A stretch of 24,000 nt of DNA, taken from positions 2,529,812 to 2,553,811 of the forward strand of contig NZ_CP064923.1 of the NCBI RefSeq assembly GCF_018336915.1. The letters run 5' to 3'. Shown here piece after piece: positions 2,351-16,338 of the stretch (positions are counted from its first letter, which is position 1; every line of letters begins with the position of its first letter). Position numbers and translations under genes: made by a program. The stretch is from Acaryochloris marina S15. GTDB taxonomy: Bacteria; Cyanobacteriota; Cyanobacteriia; Thermosynechococcales; Thermosynechococcaceae. The notes under the pieces were generated by a model. That model made no database searches. It was not told where the DNA came from and saw only the letters and a list, made by a program, of their open reading frames with translations.

Positions 2351-2737
2351 TTGAAGATGATAGAAATCAGATGGCTGGAGAAGGATATCAGTATGACTTA
2401 TGTATGTGAATTAGGCCCCGGCCACAGCATGTACCTTGACAACCAAGGTGCTCAGACCTTAGTCACTTTAATGATGGGTACTCCTGGACAACAACAACAG
2501 TCTAGTAATAGTTTTGGAACAGGCTGTTGGACAGCTCCACCTGAAATTTATCGAACGCCCCAAGAATTCGTCATTAAAGTAACCACTACTCACGGTGAGC
2601 AGTTTATCCAAGTGCAGGGCAGCAGCATGATTAGTATGACGAGCATCCCATCTTTGCAGAAGTCTCAACAGATACAAATAAACCTAAGTGAGGCGATCCC
2701 CTCTATTTCTGGTAGTGTCGCAAAAATAGAGTGTTGA
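2351..2737 (+). CDS. Hypothetical protein whose native 3' end has been replaced by IS6 copy 1
   Basis: The ORF crosses the IS left end at 2711, so its last 9 codons (GSVAKIEC plus stop) are IS sequence. Alternative starts are ATG 2357 and ATG 2393 (MTYVCELGPGHS...). No recognised domain. Confidence 0.35.
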   Translation: MKMIEIRWLEKDISMTYVCELGPGHSMYLDNQGAQTLVTLMMGTPGQQQQSSNSFGTGCWTAPPEIYRTPQEFVIKVTTTHGEQFIQVQGSSMISMTSIPSLQKSQQIQINLSEAIPSISGSVAKIEC

Positions 2738-3554
2738 CCGATAGACAGTGGTAAATTGAGAGGCTCTGTTCCTTTTCTCTCCCATCAATGAAAACTACTG
2801 ATCTGTTCAAATGGCGTCATTACCAATCTGAGATCATCCTGCTCAATGTTCGTTGGTATTGCCGTTATCCCCTCAGCTATAGAAATTTAGAAGAGATGAT
2901 GATAGAGAGGGGCTTAGAGGTGGATCACAGCACCATCAATCGGTGGGTTCTCAAATATTCTCCTGAGCTAGACAAGCGCTGTCGTCGGCATCTCAAGCCT
3001 ACCAATGATTCTTGGAGAGTTGATGAAACTTACATCAAAATCCGTAAAAAGTGGCGATACCTATATCGAGCCGTAGACTCTGATGGCTACACCCTCGACT
3101 TTTTACTCACAGCAAAGCGGGATGCTAAGGCTGCGAAGCGCTTTCTGACTAAAGCACTGAATGCCGTTCATACCCATGAACCTCGGGTGATCAATGTGGA
3201 CAAGAATCCAGCATATCCTCCTGCTGTTGAGCAGTTACAGGAAGAGGAACGTATCCCTGAAGGAGTAAAAGTACGGCAGGTAAAATACCTCAATAATATA
3301 GTGGAGCAAGATCATCGTGGCATTAAAAGTCTCGTGAACCCTGGTATGGGATTTGGATCGTTTAACTCGGCTAGACGAACCTTAAAAGGGTATGAAGCGA
3401 TGAACATGATCCGTAAAGGTCAGATCAAAAATGTGGGCAAAGATGATGTGGTAGGACAGATCTCTTTTATCAATCAAATCTTCGGATTAGCTGCATAGTC
3501 TCGGATAGAAATCTGAGGAGTTTTGTAACTGGAAGCATTTTTTGCGACACAACC
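2711..3554 (+). mobile_element. IS6-family insertion sequence, copy 1 (844 bp)
   Basis: The left inverted repeat is GGTAGTGTCGCAAAAA (from 2711). The right end is TTTTTGCGACACAACC (ending 3554), whose reverse complement is GGTTGTGTCGCAAAAA. The repeats match at 15 of 16 positions and resemble the IS26-type GGCACTGTTGCAAA terminus. The element carries one 236-aa transposase gene. The flanking 8-mers CTATTTCT and ATCATTAC differ. Confidence 0.9.
2788..3498 (+). CDS. IS6-family DDE transposase (236 aa)
   Basis: The size, single-ORF organisation and termini match the IS6 family. The protein is identical to the copy at 22792..23502. Confidence 0.9.
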   Translation: MKTTDLFKWRHYQSEIILLNVRWYCRYPLSYRNLEEMMIERGLEVDHSTINRWVLKYSPELDKRCRRHLKPTNDSWRVDETYIKIRKKWRYLYRAVDSDGYTLDFLLTAKRDAKAAKRFLTKALNAVHTHEPRVINVDKNPAYPPAVEQLQEEERIPEGVKVRQVKYLNNIVEQDHRGIKSLVNPGMGFGSFNSARRTLKGYEAMNMIRKGQIKNVGKDDVVGQISFINQIFGLAA

Positions 3555-3575
3555 ATCATTACTGAACGAGATATC

Positions 3576-6500
3576 TTGCAATTACAAACCTTAGGGATTC
3601 CTACGACCACTACATTCGTTGAGCAGGTCATGAGTAGCCCACTATTTTTTGTCGATCCTAGAGATAGCCTGTGGTCGGTTTATCAACAAATGCATCACCA
3701 TCACATCCGCCGCATGGTGGTGGTTGATTCAAATAATAGTAATCATCTCTTGGGGATTGTCAATCAAGATGATCTGCTCCATTTATTCGACCCATTGGCG
3801 ATGAATGAGACCCCGCAAGTACAGGTTGAGCCGTTTAAACAAGAAAAAATCAACCTATTGCAGGACTGGAATCATGGCTTGGAACAGCAACAACAGTTGC
3901 TAGAGGATATTATCCTTGCCAAGGATCGAGCCCAGCTATTGGAACAACAGAATCTTCGACTTCAACAGGAAATTAAAGACAAGGAGCAAGCAGAAGCAGA
4001 ATTAAACCAACAAATTGAGCAGGAAAGGCTACTACGACTTATTACCCAAGACATTCATAGCACCAGAGATATTAAGGAACTGCAGTCTCTTGTTGTCAAT
4101 CAAGTCCGTCAGACGGTTAGGGCAGATCGAGCTTTGCTGTTTCGCTTAATGCCAGGAGGGGGAGGCATCATTCTTGAGGAATCTGTTCTCCCTAGCTATC
4201 CTGCTATGGAAGAGCTAGATGGTGAAGATCAAGATTTCCCACCTGAATGCTATGAGTTTTATCTCCAAAGAAAACCGCGAATCGTTTTGGACTTACACCA
4301 AGACGACTGGAGTCATTGCTTAAAACAATTCTGGATGCCAGCCCAGGTCAAATCTAAGATTGTGGCCCCCATTGTGCAATCCCAAAATCATGGCCACAAA
4401 AGGTTATGGGGGTTATTAGTGGTTCATGCCTGTGACTATCCTCGGGTATGGCAGCCAGATGAAGCTTTATTCCTGCAGCAAGTGGCCAATCAATTTGCAG
4501 TTGCGATTCAACAAGCTGACTTAGCTATACAGTTACAGCAAGAATTAGTAGAACGGCAACAGAGCGATCTAGCTCTAGCTCAAGAGTTACAACGATCGCA
4601 GCTTTTAGGTAAAATCACTCAGAAAATCCATGAAAGTCTGGATAGCCTTCATGTTTTTGAAACGGCAGTAGTAGAAATTCGTCGCGCTCTTAAAGCGAGT
4701 CGATGCAACATTTTTGTCTATAGTGCTGTGGATGACCCTCATTTCTCTTTGATGTTCCATGATTATGAAGCAGATTATCCAGACCAAGGACCAGAGATTG
4801 TCCGCTTAGCCGATCATGAGTATGTGCGGCAACTGGCAAACCAACCAGAAGCAATTGCCAGCCCCCAGGCTCAATCCGATCCATTATTGGTAAGTTGCTT
4901 GCCAATGGTTGAAGCCCTTTCCATTCAATCTATGGTTAGTATTCGCACGTCTTACCAAGGCAATGTGAATGGAGCGATTACGATTAGCCAATGCGATCGC
5001 ATCCGGGATTGGACCCCCGAGGAATTAGACTTACTCACTGCAGTCGCCACAGAAGTGGGCATTGCCCTAGCCCACGCCAACTTACTCACCCAAGAACTCC
5101 ACCAGCGAGAACAACTCTCTCAAAAGAACCAACAACTACATACTGAAATCGAAGAGAAGAAACAAACACAGACCCTTCTCAAACTCGTGATGGATTCCAT
5201 TCCTCAAGCCATTTTTTGGAAGGACAGAACCTCTCGCTATTTAGGGTGTAATCGTGCTTTTGCCAAAGAAGCGGGTTTTAACACTGCAGAAGAGATTATT
5301 GGCAAAACTGACCAAGAGATGCCTTGGCCACCGGAAGAAGCAGAATGGTATCGGCTTTCTGATCTAGAAGTCATAAACTCCAACCAACCCCAATTCCATG
5401 TCCTTGAAACTCAGCTACGCGCCGACGGGACAAAAACGTGGATGGACACCAATAAAGTCCCTCTTCATAACCCTAAAGGAAAAGTGGTAGGGGTTTTGGG
5501 AACTGCCGAAGATATTACAGAGCGGATTCAGGTCGAAGCCGAGTTGCAGCAACAACTCCAACGAGAACAGGTCTTATCCGAAATTACCAACCAAATTCGT
5601 CAGAGCCTCGATCTGGACATCCTTTTAAAATCTGCAGTAGAACAGCTCTGTGCTTTATTCCAAGTCAGTCGGTGTTCCTTTTTTACTTACACTGACCAGC
5701 CCAACCCTCAACTCGTACTCTCTGCCCAAGCCTATTCACAGCCAGAATGGGAAGCTGCTCTTTCTCATCCCCTCCTCACCTCAGATCATCCTCGTCTTTT
5801 AAAGTTACTTGCGAATGATCGAGTTCGCCCTGTGTCTGATATTTGGCAAGAGCCTAGTCTGGCGACATCAGAAAAAGAAAGCCTGTCTTCTACCCTAAGA
5901 ATTAGAGCCTATCTCAGCGTTAGAACAGCCTTTAAAAATCATCCAAATGGCATTATATTCCTCGACCAATGCGAGCGCAGACGGAATTGGACCAAAGATG
6001 AAGTCTCTTTATTGGGAACAGTTGCAGCCCAGCTAGGGATTGCTGTTGCCCATGCTGATTTATTAGCGGATGAACAGAAGCAGCGTCAGGACTTAAAACT
6101 TCAGAACCGCCGCCTGCAGGAAGAGATCGCCCATCGAAATCAGGCCGAGAAAGCATTAGCAAAGCAACTCGAAAAAGCTGAACTGTTAGAGAAAATTGTT
6201 CAACAAATTCGGCAAAGTCTTGAACCACAGTTAATTTTCCGCACTGCCGTGACTCAGGTACGACAATTACTAGCTGCAGATCGCGTCTGCATCTATCGAT
6301 TTATAGAGGATACGGACCACGCCCAAGGCATGATGGTCGCAGAAGAAGTACTCCCAGAGTTTCCATCTGCCCTGACAGCCCATGTGCGAGACCGATGCTT
6401 TGGTGACCAATATGCAAATCGTTATCAGAGCGGTCGCTTCCAGGCTGTTGCCGATATTCATGAAGCTGGCCTTAGTGATTGCCATATTGAAATTTTGGCC

Positions 6501-8234
6501 CAGTTTCATATCCGTGCCAACTTAGTTCTGCCCCTACTCCAGGGAGATAACTTATGGGGATTGCTCTGTATTCATCAATGTTCAGGGCCGCGATCTTGGC
6601 AGCCGGATGAAATAGAGTTTGTGCAGAAGATTGCCAATCAACTGGGTATTGCCCTATATCAAGCTGAACTCCTGCTTAAAGAACAGCATCAACGCCATGT
6701 CTTATCGGTTCGAAGCCAAGAATTGACCTTCAACAATCAACAGTTGGCGGCCGCTAAACAAGAAGCTGAAACAGCTCAGAAAAAAGCAGAGCAGGCGAAT
6801 CGAGCCAAAAGTACATTTCTGGCAAATATGAGCCATGAATTGAGGACACCCTTAAATGCCATCCTAGGTTTTAGCCAGTTGATCAGTCGTGACCCCAGTA
6901 CCCCGAACTATCAGCTAGAACAACTAGAAATTATTAATCGTAGCGGTGAACATCTGCTGGCCTTAATTAACGATGTCCTCACCATGTCCAAGATTGAAGC
7001 AGGACGTTCTTCTCTCCACTCCCAAATTGTAGATTTACCGTTGCTTCTGGATACTGTGGAAAGTATGCTCGGGATTAAAGCGAAGCAAAAAAGGCTGACA
7101 CTGCTAATTAACCGTGGGCCTAACCCACCTCAGTACATTCGGACAGACCCCGGAAAACTCCGACAGGTATTAATGAATTTACTGAGTAATGCCATTAAAT
7201 TTACCACCAGTGGTCATGTCCAGCTGCACCTGGAGCCCAGTGCCTTAGACACTTCTGAGAGTTCAGATGCACCTCCATTACTAGAGCTGCGGTTTACAGT
7301 GACAGATACAGGGTCCGGCATTGCCCCAGAAGAACTTAAGTTGTTATTTGAGCCGTTTGCCCAGACAGAAACGGGGCGTCAATCCCAAGAAGGAACAGGC
7401 TTAGGATTGGCTATTAGCCGTCAATTCGTACAGCTGATGGGCGGAAATTTGACTGCCCAGAGTATCCATAACCAGGGCACAACTTTCACCTTCAATATTG
7501 TGGTTGAAAAAGTTCTACAGCAAAAGCAATCTCTCTCTCATCGTCAGTTCATGGGGTTATTACCAGATCAACCTCAATATCGAATTCTGGTAGTGGAAGA
7601 TAATATGGATAGTCGTGAATTGTTAGTAACCCTACTAGAAACTATTGGTTTTACGGTTAAGGCAGCTAAAAATGGTGAAGTAGCCGTTACACTATGCCAA
7701 AGCTGGCAACCTGATTTAGTCTGGATGGATTTGCGACTACCTATCCTAGACGGATTGAGCGCTACGCGTTTGATCAAGCAAATGGAGAATCCCCCTGTCG
7801 TCATTGCCTTAACAGCTAATGCCTTTGATGAAGATCGTGACTTGGCACTACGAGCAGGATGTGATGATTTCGTTCATAAGCCTTATCGAGAAGCAAGTAT
7901 TTTCGAAAAAATGGCTCTACATTTAGAGGTGGAGTATCATTACCAAGATAAAGTACCTCTCAAATCAACGATTCCCACCTTAAATGTGGACCATCTAGCT
8001 CAAATGCCTCATCCTTGGCTAGTTCAATTACATCAAGCGACTAATAATCTCGACCAACATATGGTGGAACTGCTCCTCGATGAGCTTGATGATACTGCTC
8101 AGCCATTGCAAGAAGCTCTCAGACATTTAGTATACGAGTTTCGTTATGACGAAATTCTAGCGGTTACGCATCCTCTCATTTCACCTCTTCCTCAGGACTC
8201 CACGGAACAGAGTCCTCAAAATGGGAATGGGTAA
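3576..8234 (+). CDS. Hybrid sensor histidine kinase (CBS remnant, coiled coils, 2 GAF, PAS, 2 GAF, HisKA, HATPase, REC, helical tail), 5'-truncated by IS6 copy 1
   Basis: The frame is open from the IS boundary at 3555 (IITERDILQLQ...), which falls inside a CBS motif. A second CBS follows (VMSSPLFFVDP...LLGIVNQDDLL). GAF-like cores are WGLLVVHAC, AITISQCD, GIIFLDQCE and WGLLCIHQC. The PAS region runs MDSIPQAIFWKD...GTAEDITERI. The H-box is SHELRTPLN (His codon 6834-6836). ATPase boxes are LLSNAIKFT, DTGSGI and GTGLGL. The REC domain is ILVVEDN...WMDLRLP (Asp codon 7728-7730). The only nearby start is a TTG at 3576, so the native N-terminus is missing. Confidence 0.85.
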   Translation: MQLQTLGIPTTTTFVEQVMSSPLFFVDPRDSLWSVYQQMHHHHIRRMVVVDSNNSNHLLGIVNQDDLLHLFDPLAMNETPQVQVEPFKQEKINLLQDWNHGLEQQQQLLEDIILAKDRAQLLEQQNLRLQQEIKDKEQAEAELNQQIEQERLLRLITQDIHSTRDIKELQSLVVNQVRQTVRADRALLFRLMPGGGGIILEESVLPSYPAMEELDGEDQDFPPECYEFYLQRKPRIVLDLHQDDWSHCLKQFWMPAQVKSKIVAPIVQSQNHGHKRLWGLLVVHACDYPRVWQPDEALFLQQVANQFAVAIQQADLAIQLQQELVERQQSDLALAQELQRSQLLGKITQKIHESLDSLHVFETAVVEIRRALKASRCNIFVYSAVDDPHFSLMFHDYEADYPDQGPEIVRLADHEYVRQLANQPEAIASPQAQSDPLLVSCLPMVEALSIQSMVSIRTSYQGNVNGAITISQCDRIRDWTPEELDLLTAVATEVGIALAHANLLTQELHQREQLSQKNQQLHTEIEEKKQTQTLLKLVMDSIPQAIFWKDRTSRYLGCNRAFAKEAGFNTAEEIIGKTDQEMPWPPEEAEWYRLSDLEVINSNQPQFHVLETQLRADGTKTWMDTNKVPLHNPKGKVVGVLGTAEDITERIQVEAELQQQLQREQVLSEITNQIRQSLDLDILLKSAVEQLCALFQVSRCSFFTYTDQPNPQLVLSAQAYSQPEWEAALSHPLLTSDHPRLLKLLANDRVRPVSDIWQEPSLATSEKESLSSTLRIRAYLSVRTAFKNHPNGIIFLDQCERRRNWTKDEVSLLGTVAAQLGIAVAHADLLADEQKQRQDLKLQNRRLQEEIAHRNQAEKALAKQLEKAELLEKIVQQIRQSLEPQLIFRTAVTQVRQLLAADRVCIYRFIEDTDHAQGMMVAEEVLPEFPSALTAHVRDRCFGDQYANRYQSGRFQAVADIHEAGLSDCHIEILAQFHIRANLVLPLLQGDNLWGLLCIHQCSGPRSWQPDEIEFVQKIANQLGIALYQAELLLKEQHQRHVLSVRSQELTFNNQQLAAAKQEAETAQKKAEQANRAKSTFLANMSHELRTPLNAILGFSQLISRDPSTPNYQLEQLEIINRSGEHLLALINDVLTMSKIEAGRSSLHSQIVDLPLLLDTVESMLGIKAKQKRLTLLINRGPNPPQYIRTDPGKLRQVLMNLLSNAIKFTTSGHVQLHLEPSALDTSESSDAPPLLELRFTVTDTGSGIAPEELKLLFEPFAQTETGRQSQEGTGLGLAISRQFVQLMGGNLTAQSIHNQGTTFTFNIVVEKVLQQKQSLSHRQFMGLLPDQPQYRILVVEDNMDSRELLVTLLETIGFTVKAAKNGEVAVTLCQSWQPDLVWMDLRLPILDGLSATRLIKQMENPPVVIALTANAFDEDRDLALRAGCDDFVHKPYREASIFEKMALHLEVEYHYQDKVPLKSTIPTLNVDHLAQMPHPWLVQLHQATNNLDQHMVELLLDELDDTAQPLQEALRHLVYEFRYDEILAVTHPLISPLPQDSTEQSPQNGNG

Positions 8235-8414: not shown

Positions 8415-8465
8415 CTATATCCAATAATTGAATATAGTGTTATTTTTGAATATATATTTCAAAAA
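8415..8465. promoter_or_regulatory. Two palindromes just upstream of padR, candidate PadR operators
   Basis: CTATATCCAATAATTGAATATAG (8415-8437) is a 23-bp palindrome with one mismatched pair. TTTTTGAA-TATATAT-TTCAAAAA (8443-8465) has 8-bp perfect arms. The second ends 14 bp before the padR ATG at 8480. Confidence 0.45.
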
Positions 8466-8479
8466 CATCTAGCGCTGCT

Positions 8480-8809
8480 ATGTCAGAATCCAACTTGCGT
8501 TTGACGCCTAATCAAGAGGTTATCTTAGCGGCCTTACGATTACATCGACGCTATGGTCTTGAGATTCTGGCTGCGATTGAAAATAGTGGGGGGAAACAGA
8601 TTGGTTTTAATTCCCTCTATCCCAATTTAAAGAAATTAGAGAAGAAAGGACTCGTCCAGTCTGAATGGGGGGATGAGCAGCCAGAAGAGCATAGTGGGGC
8701 AAGACGAAAATACTACCGTATTACTGCTGTAGGCATCAGAGCATTAGATGTCAAACAACAGCTGCTAGCTGAGGTAGCAGTCTGGATACCTGAAACGGAA
8801 GGGGCATGA
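8480..8809 (+). CDS. PadR-family transcriptional regulator (109 aa)
   Basis: Winged-helix PadR pattern: RYGLEILAAIE...NSLYPNLKKLEKKGLVQSEW...RRKYYRITAVG. Confidence 0.8.
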   Translation: MSESNLRLTPNQEVILAALRLHRRYGLEILAAIENSGGKQIGFNSLYPNLKKLEKKGLVQSEWGDEQPEEHSGARRKYYRITAVGIRALDVKQQLLAEVAVWIPETEGA

Positions 8810-8810
8810 A

Positions 8811-9746
8811 ATGAATGAGAAGGATTTAAAACTCGCAGAAAAAACAGGGCAGTTTGTCCGTCGTTTTCCCGATATATGGCAGGAGTATCAGGACTGGTTA
8901 AGAGCTATTGTCTCTTCTCAGGAAAAACTACAACAACGATATTCAGAGGGGGTAGCAAGTCTGATCTTTCGATGGCGGTTGCTGTATTTTGGCATCTATA
9001 TGTTTGGGATGGTGGGACGGAAAACCGTAGCTCAGATTCTCACCCAGTTATCCAGACCTCAACAAACAAATAATGGTCCTATCGTTAAGCAGGGAGCGAT
9101 CGCAACTCAATCCCTACAAATTAATCGCACCTATTTTATCCTGCAACGAATAGCGACACTTCTAGCAGTGGCGGAATTGACTCTATGTGGTCTAGCAGCA
9201 ATGACGGGAGTCATGCTGGCATTCTACTATCAGCCGACAGCGGTAGGGGCTCATGCATCCTTGCATGCGATCGCATATCAGATCGTCAACGGCAATCTCA
9301 TCCTCAGTCTGCATAACATCGCTGGGAATGGCCTGATTGTTCTCGCATTAGTCCAAATTGTCGTCATGTTTTTGGGACGGCAGTTTATGAGATCTTGGTT
9401 AACCGCCTGGATTAGCGGAATTTGCCTAGCACTAGCAACAATAGGCCTCAGTTGGACAGCCATTATTCTCAATTGGGACCAGGTCGGTTTCTGGCGATTC
9501 AAGATTGAGCTCAATATTATTGGCTCTTTACCCGCAGGCTCATTTCTACGGGAGGTACTGGCTGGCGGGAGTGCCATTAATACCCTGACCCTTCAACATA
9601 TGTATACCTTGCACAGCTACGTACTTGCGATCGCAGCCTTGCTCCTATCCGTTATCCATCTCACTGCCCATATCCTCCAAGAAAAATATTGGGCTCAAAC
9701 TGCTCCTGAAAGCTGGCATTCTTCAGAAGATACAAGCACGATCTAA
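8811..9746 (+). CDS. Membrane protein with a cytochrome b6 / cytochrome b N-terminal-like four-helix core and a roughly 125-aa N-terminal extension
   Basis: The ATG lies 1 nt after the padR stop. The core aligns by eye to PetB: MLAFYYQPT ~ AMTFYYKPT, SLHNIAGNGLIVL ~ SIHRWSASMMVL, NWDQVGFW ~ PWDQVGYW, and TLHSYVL...SVIHL ~ SLHTFVL...LLHFL. Confidence 0.7.
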   Translation: MNEKDLKLAEKTGQFVRRFPDIWQEYQDWLRAIVSSQEKLQQRYSEGVASLIFRWRLLYFGIYMFGMVGRKTVAQILTQLSRPQQTNNGPIVKQGAIATQSLQINRTYFILQRIATLLAVAELTLCGLAAMTGVMLAFYYQPTAVGAHASLHAIAYQIVNGNLILSLHNIAGNGLIVLALVQIVVMFLGRQFMRSWLTAWISGICLALATIGLSWTAIILNWDQVGFWRFKIELNIIGSLPAGSFLREVLAGGSAINTLTLQHMYTLHSYVLAIAALLLSVIHLTAHILQEKYWAQTAPESWHSSEDTSTI

Positions 9747-9782: not shown

Positions 9783-10349
9783 TTAATCGAGCCACTGGAC
9801 TCCATTGCCAGACGTAGGGGGACAGTCATCAATCTGATTAGGCTCTGAAGTCGCAGGCATTTCTTCATTAGGATCGAATTGAATAAACGGATTAACGCTA
9901 ATATCCGTGAGACTATCTGGATCAACAATCATGTATGGCGGTTCCCCAATATGTTCAGGGTAAAACTGCTCTACAAAAAAATCCAAGGTGGCTTGGCGAA
10001 TATAGCCATTCAAAACAGCAAGGGCTCCAAACCGTAACCCCGTCTTTTGCTGAGCTGCCAAAATAGCGTCGACCATATTTCTATCAATCAGTCCAGCCCG
10101 ACGTAAATAGCTACCAATGGGAACTGGATCTGCTTGAGTATCGGGGTAAGGCCACTGATCACCAAAAAAGTCAGCCGTTTGCTGTTGCACCCATCCATGC
10201 AGAGTCAGAATCTCACCTAACCGCATCATTTCATAGAGTCGCTGCTCATACAGAGCAGTTTCCAACTGATGGGCTGAAATCAGATCTGATGCACACAATC
10301 GCTCACCGATTTTGTGAGAATTTTGAATGAGGGTGGGGCCAATGGTCAT
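9783..10349 (-). CDS. Hypothetical protein with two T2SSE_N/MshEN-like helical repeats (188 aa)
   Basis: There are two copies of the pattern (A/S)xQLExAL..Q......(R/M)(L/F)GE/A(I/L)..L.G(W/Y)(V/I).Q.T.DFF. The copies are RLGEILTLHGWVQQQTADFF and RFGALAVLNGYIRQATLDFF. The domain assignment is tentative. Confidence 0.5.
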   Translation of the reverse strand: MTIGPTLIQNSHKIGERLCASDLISAHQLETALYEQRLYEMMRLGEILTLHGWVQQQTADFFGDQWPYPDTQADPVPIGSYLRRAGLIDRNMVDAILAAQQKTGLRFGALAVLNGYIRQATLDFFVEQFYPEHIGEPPYMIVDPDSLTDISVNPFIQFDPNEEMPATSEPNQIDDCPPTSGNGVQWLD

Positions 10350-15137: not shown

Positions 15138-15244
15138 CGACCCAGCTTTTAACTCAGTCTTGCTCGCCAGCAGCGGTTTCAATCAAGCACCCTTCGTCAA
15201 GGATTGGACGATCTTGAGAGATTCGTCAATATGGCCTTGGAAGT

Positions 15245-16088
15245 GGTTGTGTCGCAAAAAATGCTTCCAGTTACAAAACTCCTCAGATTTCTATCCGAGA
15301 CTATGCAGCTAATCCGAAGATTTGATTGATAAAAGAGATCTGTCCTACCACATCATCTTTGCCCACATTTTTGATCTGACCTTTACGGATCATGTTCATC
15401 GCTTCATACCCTTTTAAGGTTCGTCTAGCCGAGTTAAACGATCCAAATCCCATACCAGGGTTCACGAGACTTTTAATGCCACGATGATCTTGCTCCACTA
15501 TATTATTGAGGTATTTTACCTGCCGTACTTTTACTCCTTCAGGGATACGTTCCTCTTCCTGTAACTGCTCAACAGCAGGAGGATATGCTGGATTCTTGTC
15601 CACATTGATCACCCGAGGTTCATGGGTATGAACGGCATTCAGTGCTTTAGTCAGAAAGCGCTTCGCAGCCTTAGCATCCCGCTTTGCTGTGAGTAAAAAG
15701 TCGAGGGTGTAGCCATCAGAGTCTACGGCTCGATATAGGTATCGCCACTTTTTACGGATTTTGATGTAAGTTTCATCAACTCTCCAAGAATCATTGGTAG
15801 GCTTGAGATGCCGACGACAGCGCTTGTCTAGCTCAGGAGAATATTTGAGAACCCACCGATTGATGGTGCTGTGATCCACCTCTAAGCCCCTCTCTATCAT
15901 CATCTCTTCTAAATTTCTATAGCTGAGGGGATAACGGCAATACCAACAAACATTGAGCAGGATGATCTCAGATTGGTAATGACGCCATTTGAACAGATCA
16001 GTAGTTTTCATTGATGGGAGAGAAAAGGAACAGAGCCTCTCAATTTACCACTGTCTATCGGTCAACACTCTATTTTTGCGACACTACC
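15245..16088 (-). mobile_element. IS6-family insertion sequence, copy 2 (844 bp, inverted relative to copies 1 and 3)
   Basis: It has the same termini as the other copies: GGTTGTGTCGCAAAAA starts at 15245 and TTTTTGCGACACTACC ends at 16088. The flanking 8-mers TTGGAAGT and TGAATTTG differ. Confidence 0.9.
15301..16011 (-). CDS. IS6-family DDE transposase (236 aa)
   Basis: It is identical to the other two copies except for residue 22 (Cys instead of Arg). The cause is a single nucleotide difference at 15948. Confidence 0.9.
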   Translation of the reverse strand: MKTTDLFKWRHYQSEIILLNVCWYCRYPLSYRNLEEMMIERGLEVDHSTINRWVLKYSPELDKRCRRHLKPTNDSWRVDETYIKIRKKWRYLYRAVDSDGYTLDFLLTAKRDAKAAKRFLTKALNAVHTHEPRVINVDKNPAYPPAVEQLQEEERIPEGVKVRQVKYLNNIVEQDHRGIKSLVNPGMGFGSFNSARRTLKGYEAMNMIRKGQIKNVGKDDVVGQISFINQIFGLAA

Positions 16089-16338
16089 TGAATTTGAATT
16101 GGCTCAAAGCAAATCGACTCAAACCGAATCACTGATAACACCCGATCTTGCTCATTCGCTAACTTCACCAAAGCCACAATCAGCACTTTTGACCATAAAT
16201 CTCGGACTCAAGCATGGCCTGTTGTTGACCATAAACGGGCTTCCCTTAAATAGTCAAAAATCCAACTAGCTAGCCCCATTGGGATGAGTTGATGTTGGTA
16301 TGTGCAACAATCAATACACCGCAAACACTTGACGAACT

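Follow-up and report, generated by a model that had tools for sequence, protein, structure and literature searches.

The window, a stretch of 24,000 nucleotides from the genome of Acaryochloris marina S15 to which the positions below refer unless a locus is named, contains a short padR gene followed at once by a gene for a cytochrome-b6-like membrane protein, called the partner hereafter. The features of this locus are the following.

8415-8437 (no strand assigned): probable PadR operator, a 21-bp dyad TATATC-CAATAATTG-AATATA with its core at 8416-8436
8443-8465 (no strand assigned): AT-rich element, a second palindrome TTTTTGAA-N7-TTCAAAAA
8480-8809 (+): padR, 109 aa, a short single-domain winged-helix repressor of the PadR family
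8807-8813 (+): stop/start junction TGA-A-ATG, made of the padR stop TGA (8807-8809), one A and the partner ATG starting at 8811
8811-9746 (+): partner gene, 311 aa, cytochrome-b6-like membrane protein
8811-9050 (+): PadR-partner module, residues 1-80, three helices (AlphaFold and profile search)
9051-9146 (+): variable basic linker, residues 81-112, predicted to be cytoplasmic, with low pLDDT at 82-97
9147-9746 (+): cytochrome b6-like four-helix core (residues 113-297) and short tail (sequence and Foldseek)

The one-domain padR product matches the family model PF03551 with 60.9 bits against a cut-off of 27 (E 1.2e-16), and its nearest NCBIfam model, padR_acidobact, scores below cut-off. The gap of 1 nt between the padR stop and the next ATG, pointed out in an earlier reading made from the sequence only, is borne out by the coordinates (8809 and 8811). 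This TGA-N-ATG spacing, together with the G-rich Shine-Dalgarno-like run that precedes it, is kept in 27 of 29 orthologous loci, and we read the junction as translational coupling of padR and the partner gene. Since the gene 3' of the partner gene lies on the opposite strand, the unit comprises just these two. The relative nearest to the partner protein, 97% identical, carries the label Acaryochloris sp. 'Moss Beach'.

As for the surroundings, the window contains two IS6-family copies (DDE_Tnp_IS240 transposase) of 854 nt each, identical in sequence and inverted relative to one another, at 2702-3555 and 15244-16097. They bracket 11.7 kb carrying a hybrid kinase, the padR pair, an MshEN-like gene, a CP43/IsiA-like gene, a flavodoxin, a hydrolase and a Crp-like regulator, a layout that looks like that of a composite transposon. 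The hybrid histidine kinase (3576-8234, 1552 aa, CBS-PAS-4xGAF) comes right after an IS6 copy and has TTG as its first start codon; the insertion may have cut its N-terminus. At 9783-10349 on the minus strand, a stand-alone protein of 188 aa has two c-di-GMP-binding motifs of the MshE-N type (NF053729, E 9e-20) and lacks an output domain.

The partner protein is a true cytochrome b/b6 homologue. Its residues 124-285 match PF00033 (E 5.6e-21, 75.7 bits against a cut-off of 27.2), it also matches PF13631, and its alignments to solved cytochrome b6 are gapless across helices A-C with E values of 6e-24 to 3e-21, among them those to 1q90_B (6e-24) and 1vf5_A (4e-23); identity to cytochrome b6 (PetB) is about 30%. 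An AlphaFold model of moderate confidence built on 150 relatives (pLDDT 77.8, pTM 0.57), in which heme is not represented, had cytochrome b6 chains as top Foldseek matches, with a TM-score on the target of 0.69-0.74 and an rmsd of 2.3-3.1 Å over about 180 residues. Match and fold together place the protein in the PF00033 family, and the PetB-like four-helix core that had been recognised earlier stands. The N-terminal extension of roughly 125 residues proposed at the same time does not: about 82 residues lie beyond the PetB N-terminus, partner numbering being b6 numbering plus 82, and the Pfam match sets in at residue 124 because it covers the profile from position 22 onwards. With PetB the partner shares the four-helix fold, the p-side His pair, one n-side His and Gly51; unlike PetB of the b6f complex, it carries an extra N-terminal module, is paired with a repressor gene and has no adjacent petD. 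A normal petB followed by a petD-like frame is present elsewhere in the genome (G000:C1:1314910) and scores 281.6 bits, versus 77.4 bits for the partner gene.

In cytochrome b6, four His residues ligate two b hemes, hemes bn and cn are kept in place by Cys, Gly and Arg on the n-side, and Cys35 is the covalent anchor of heme cn. By the b6 alignment, His86 corresponds to H168 of the partner (codon 9312-9314), His100 to Q182 (9354-9356), His187 to H268 (9612-9614) and His202 to H283 (9657-9659), so that H168 and H268 make up the p-side heme pair and Q182 and H283 the remodelled n-side site. The sequence-only reading had counted three of the four ligands and a Gln in the place of His100, and the profile alignment agrees with it on both points, giving Gln and not His.

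Relatives of the partner are either long forms, which carry the N-terminal extension, or short, core-only forms. The equivalents of H86, H187 and H202 are invariant in 121/121 long-form relatives, in all of which the His100 position is Gln and the Cys35 position Ala. Of 29 short forms, 25 likewise have Gln at the His100 position and 4 have Glu or Asp there, which suggests an oxygen donor or a hydrogen-bond role. None of the n-side hallmarks of PetB, namely Cys35, Gly37, Arg103 and Arg207, is found in the partner. Gly37 is replaced by Ala, Val or Met in the partner family (Gly in 35/35 other cytochromes b of the same search), Arg103 by Val or Ile (Arg in 35/35) and Arg207 by Ile, Val or Leu (Arg in 33/35). 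As to p-side residues, the family retains Gly51 and has Ala for Gly135, and its long forms have Leu for Arg83. The alignments indicate that the whole n-side site is remodelled in this family, beyond a single ligand. We infer that the p-side bis-His heme is retained and that the n-side pocket would no longer hold hemes bn and cn as in b6; the partner may be a single-heme protein. Because His283 and Gln182 are strongly constrained, the n-side pocket presumably still does something; it might contain a metal ion, a ligand resembling a quinone, or a heme that is five-coordinate or ligated by His and Gln.

A separate, non-cyanobacterial group of cytochrome-b-like proteins (loci L077, L080, L082, L084-L088, L092-L105 and L107, from Eisenbacteria, Acidobacteriota and other MAGs) has Arg at the His100 position in 23/35 sequences, with Gly37 and Arg103 kept, meaning that this ligand was lost more than once.

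The loss of one heme ligand and the location within an IS6-bracketed segment would be in keeping with a functionless, decaying petB paralogue that lies next to padR by chance. We regard this explanation as extremely improbable, since more than 120 full-length relatives share dozens of invariant residues, Gln182 and His283 included, and since gene order, junction and operator are conserved across genera.

We then looked at how the pair is distributed. In a phylum sample of 401 genomes, 36 had a close relative of the partner, the window's own genome included; all relatives other than the window's own were core-only proteins of about 200-250 aa, and no padR was found near them within the fetched flanks. 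When species genomes were scanned, long forms turned up at 31 loci (Acaryochloris, Leptolyngbyaceae, Symploca, Pleurocapsales, Lusitaniella and others), of which 29 have padR directly upstream of the long-form gene, while padR adjoins the short form in 0/38 loci, a total that includes nine from the species-genome scan. The two exceptions among the long forms are Leptolyngbya PCC 7375 and a locus (L062) that starts at a contig edge. The padR/partner unit is therefore a two-gene arrangement that occurs in several cyanobacterial lineages, and the survey of padR/cytochrome-b-like pairs that had been suggested earlier shows the pairing kept in about 30 species-level genomes.

Two of these loci are disrupted. 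In Leptolyngbya sp. PCC 7375 (L043:3900-4003) the partner is intact and padR is reduced to its last few bases and the TGA-N-ATG junction, making it a natural padR-less strain usable for comparison. In Mastigocoleus testarum BC008 (L061:1128-4777), padR and the first 37 partner codons are intact and a 2.4-kb insertion splits the partner gene; this locus is counted among the 29 that are linked to padR.

In a tree of the core region, the long forms make up a single clade (SH-aLRT 95) nested among the short forms, which indicates that the N-terminal extension and the padR link arose once. The cores of the two forms also differ: long forms have Glu122 in helix A where short forms have Ile, Val or Met, and Leu-Ser-Leu before H168 where short forms have basic residues; long forms also have Lys231. 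These differences may mark the docking place of the N-terminal module. Next to short forms we observed a Kef-type Na/H-exchanger with a TrkA_N domain in 20/38 loci and a PGAP1-like hydrolase in 18/38. A functional link of the short form to either gene was rejected, the loci concerned (L005-L031) coming mostly from one genome family.

The neighbourhood also bears on whether the partner could belong to another quinol-oxidising complex of the bc type whose subunit IV and Rieske protein are encoded elsewhere. The clear cytochrome b homology would fit, and some relatives are publicly labelled 'cytochrome bc complex cytochrome b subunit'. In the loci compared, however, no conserved neighbour of the long-form gene other than padR was found, and there is neither a petD-like nor a Rieske gene; the true petB and its petD-like frame lie elsewhere, and other residues stand in the place of the n-side heme ligand and of Cys35, Gly37, Arg103 and Arg207. 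We hold a bc-type subunit to be very unlikely, and the earlier statement that the partner is not part of the b6f complex is upheld by the lack of a petD neighbour, the separate normal petB and the replaced n-side residues.

The part of the protein that sets long forms apart is the N-terminal module. Its helices span residues 3-16, 20-43 and 46-80, with a pLDDT of about 80-93 in both AlphaFold models, and a hydrophobic helix (48-69) is contained within the third. Invariant residues are W23, Q27, D28, W29, L30, F53, W55, R56, L57, Y59, F60 and Y63. Scanning 20 N-terminal segments returned no Pfam or NCBIfam match for the module, a look-up of residues 1-82 in the ESM Atlas gave scores of at most 0.87 and no lead, and a structure search with the first partner model (core pLDDT 66.6) found only generic helical bundles with Z up to 9.3.

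When the module profile was searched against 1.84 billion representative proteins, it recovered, besides the long forms, one protein of 81 aa and a set of about 25 that are 120-190 aa long. The 120-190 aa proteins consist of a basic N-terminus, two membrane helices, a basic linker and then the module (2TM-module proteins). We fetched 22 of their loci, and padR was directly upstream in 18/18 that had enough upstream DNA, the remaining four beginning within about 300 nt of a contig end. In other cyanobacteria, related PadRs (46-53% identical) precede multi-pass membrane or apparently soluble proteins that end in 'FP-x-ERREEWLGDL ... P-x-W-x-V' followed by a hydrophobic or amphipathic helix, and hhalign matched the module to these ends with a probability of 93.9% (E 1.6e-7). 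Taken together, these results show that the module can sit at the N- or the C-terminus of proteins of different make-up and stays associated with one PadR subfamily. This gene context suggests a physical contact between PadR and the module, and control probably runs both ways, from PadR to the membrane partner and back.

The module profile also matched two giant proteins, P0123 (6411 aa) and P0134 (1673 aa), at profile positions 25-68 and in 6 to 8 stretches each; these short matches, which fall in the hydrophobic part of the module, are probably artefacts of repeats or of composition. The window's own genome encodes a second PadR of the related subfamily (L174:1426-3270, G000:C1:1205001-1206845), 44% identical, which is followed after 1 nt by a long protein with tandem 'KIDDP-x-SK-x-D-x-L-x-AIAAAYGQINDPKL' repeats. 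The two may form a further PadR-partner pair; the repeat protein gave no match to the module.

Both palindromes that the sequence-only reading had placed before padR exist by inverted-repeat analysis. The first has 11-nt arms that are 91% matched (8415-8425/8427-8437), its dyad being centred about 54 nt upstream of the padR ATG with one arm mismatch, and the second has perfect 8-nt arms (8443-8450/8458-8465). In orthologous loci only the first is conserved as a palindrome. The dyad TATATC-N9-GATATA, with the consensus TATATCcATTt.TTaGATATA, is present in about 29 orthologous loci from different genera, 50-99 nt and mostly 59-73 nt upstream of the padR start, and the 2TM-module loci have a TATATTCAA-N3-TTGAATATA version of it upstream of padR in the same layout. 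In the second region, orthologues keep only the left half and the AT-rich centre ('TAtatTTg.ata') and not the right arm. A sigma-70 consensus scan found no promoter in the 8443-8465 element; this element would probably hold the -10 region.

We built an operator weight matrix from 28 sites, the window's own site left out, with training-site scores of 23.6-37.6 bits. Across the 7.1-Mb genome the window site scored 28.2 bits and the next best 19.5, below the training range. The exact dyad pattern gave one other match, no more than a control pattern gave. Neither the exact pattern nor the weight matrix thus revealed a second strong operator, and hence further regulon members, in this genome. The conserved dyad and the single strong genomic site suggest autorepression, the operon itself being the only strong target that PadR would repress.

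Contact between the module and PadR depends on the side of the membrane on which the module lies. The core loops of the partner follow the PetB orientation, the stretch 70-112 before helix A is strongly basic (net charge +4.6, averaged over 28 relatives), and if helix 48-69 spanned the membrane, the module would be periplasmic or lumenal and unable to touch PadR. This helix is only marginally hydrophobic (mean 1.22) and is flanked by basic residues, the module of the 2TM proteins follows a basic loop behind two membrane helices, which places it in the cytoplasm, and the matching helix of the apparently soluble relatives contains Lys and Asp. On the grounds of the hydrophobicity, the 2TM layout and these charged residues, we take helix 48-69 as probably non-spanning; it would belong to the module, perhaps lying in the membrane surface.

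An autoregulated switch is the reading that we favour as rather probable. A PadR dimer would bind next to its own promoter, at the 21-bp dyad on the upstream side, and so repress padR and the translationally coupled partner gene. The partner would consist of a cytoplasmic three-helix module and a cytochrome b6-type four-helix membrane core, the latter keeping its p-side bis-His heme site and having a changed n-side (cytoplasmic) pocket that contains His283 and Gln182. If this core gained or lost heme, changed its redox state or bound a ligand, the module's hold on PadR at the membrane would be altered, and this hold would set the expression level of the operon. The unit would probably link membrane heme or redox chemistry to gene control. 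The earlier proposal of a PadR-controlled cytochrome-b-like sensor or redox protein is supported by the homology, the fold and the conserved pairing; its 'single-heme' part may be right, to judge by the ligand pattern.

A plain repressor-effector pair is the main alternative. In this case PadR senses a small molecule and represses a stress-induced membrane cytochrome, acting as an electron sink or in heme/porphyrin handling, and the module serves the cytochrome without binding PadR. PadR and LmrR do bind ligands directly, one of the topology readings puts the module outside the cytoplasm, and since the genome has no strong site besides the operon's own operator, no output other than the cytochrome-like protein can be seen, which fits a simple repressed effector gene equally well. 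A helper domain of a cytochrome is nevertheless not expected to travel with PadR, and the module does follow PadR on unrelated parts, whether in 2TM, multi-pass or apparently soluble proteins, while padR adjoins none of the core-only cytochromes (0/38). We consequently judge the repressor-effector pair rather unlikely, although clearly less so than a bc-type subunit.

The route by which the state of the photosynthetic or respiratory membrane reaches gene expression in cyanobacteria is only partly understood, and a 2026 review of cyanobacterial redox signalling does not mention PadR. If the switch exists as proposed, a repressor tied to a b6-derived membrane protein would provide a short route from membrane heme/redox chemistry to a promoter, and the core of an energy-converting enzyme would have been reused as a sensor. 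Module, operator and PadR make a compact and apparently orthogonal unit that is easily tested in a heterologous host. As the sequence-only reading had supposed, the pairing seems to be uncharacterised, no paper describing a PadR/cytochrome-b6-like pair having been found in the literature searched.

The proposed logic has a counterpart in the Mlc repressor, which is held at the membrane by the glucose transporter PtsG. In both cases a membrane protein would keep a repressor off its operator depending on its own state; the proteins of the two systems are unrelated, and for padR and the partner the contact is deduced from gene context.

A closer likeness is found in the HAAS-PadR-like wHTH dyads, in which, according to the available part of their description, a three-helix HAAS domain is carried by varied membrane sensors and always lies beside a stand-alone PadR, an arrangement proposed as a signalling alternative to two-component systems (Ravi et al., bioRxiv 10.1101/2020.09.24.301986, PMC11237479). 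All canonical HAAS loci that we fetched had a PadR neighbour (8/8). These dyads have in common a short stand-alone PadR adjoining a gene with a small helical domain and a membrane or sensor part, and this layout is also that of the padR/partner unit, which by analogy may share their logic as well.

The module itself was not assigned to HAAS. The HAAS families PF22564, PF08006, DUF1129 and DUF1048 gave no match at E up to 10 with 20 members of the module family, nor did PF22564 (HAAS) or PF08006 (HAAS_TM) match anything in the window's genome. By hhalign the module aligned to seven canonical HAAS sequences, all with PadR neighbours, with a probability of 0.1-1.1% against what is a thin reference profile. 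Since neither the profile scans nor three hhalign settings gave a significant match, membership was rejected. A very distant kinship is possible: the variant-group 'FP-x-E-R-R-E-E' aligns in register with 'LP-x-E-E-R-E-D' of HAAS, at the probability of 1.1%. HAAS has a kinked third helix with a GxP motif, whereas GxP is missing from the module alignment; a Pro-x-Trp is often seen in module relatives at the turn between helices 2 and 3, and the window's protein lacks it. Canonical HAAS was present in 8/301 genomes, all from lineages of the phylum that do not belong to the class of the window.

More tentatively, and with a little less than even confidence, we suggest that the modules belong to an unrecognised cyanobacterial superfamily of PadR partners, unrelated or distantly related to HAAS, that plugs sensors into PadR. 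The b6 core would here serve as a heme-based detector in the membrane: a heme, five-coordinate or with His/Gln ligation, or else an empty pocket, on the cytoplasmic side would pass information on redox state, gas or heme supply straight to transcription. The sensor domains given for HAAS in the available part of the paper by Ravi et al. (PMC11237479) do not include a cytochrome b core. What is new at this locus is the proposed use of HAAS-PadR-type logic with a partner module that lies outside current models, and with a cytochrome b6 core as the presumed sensor.
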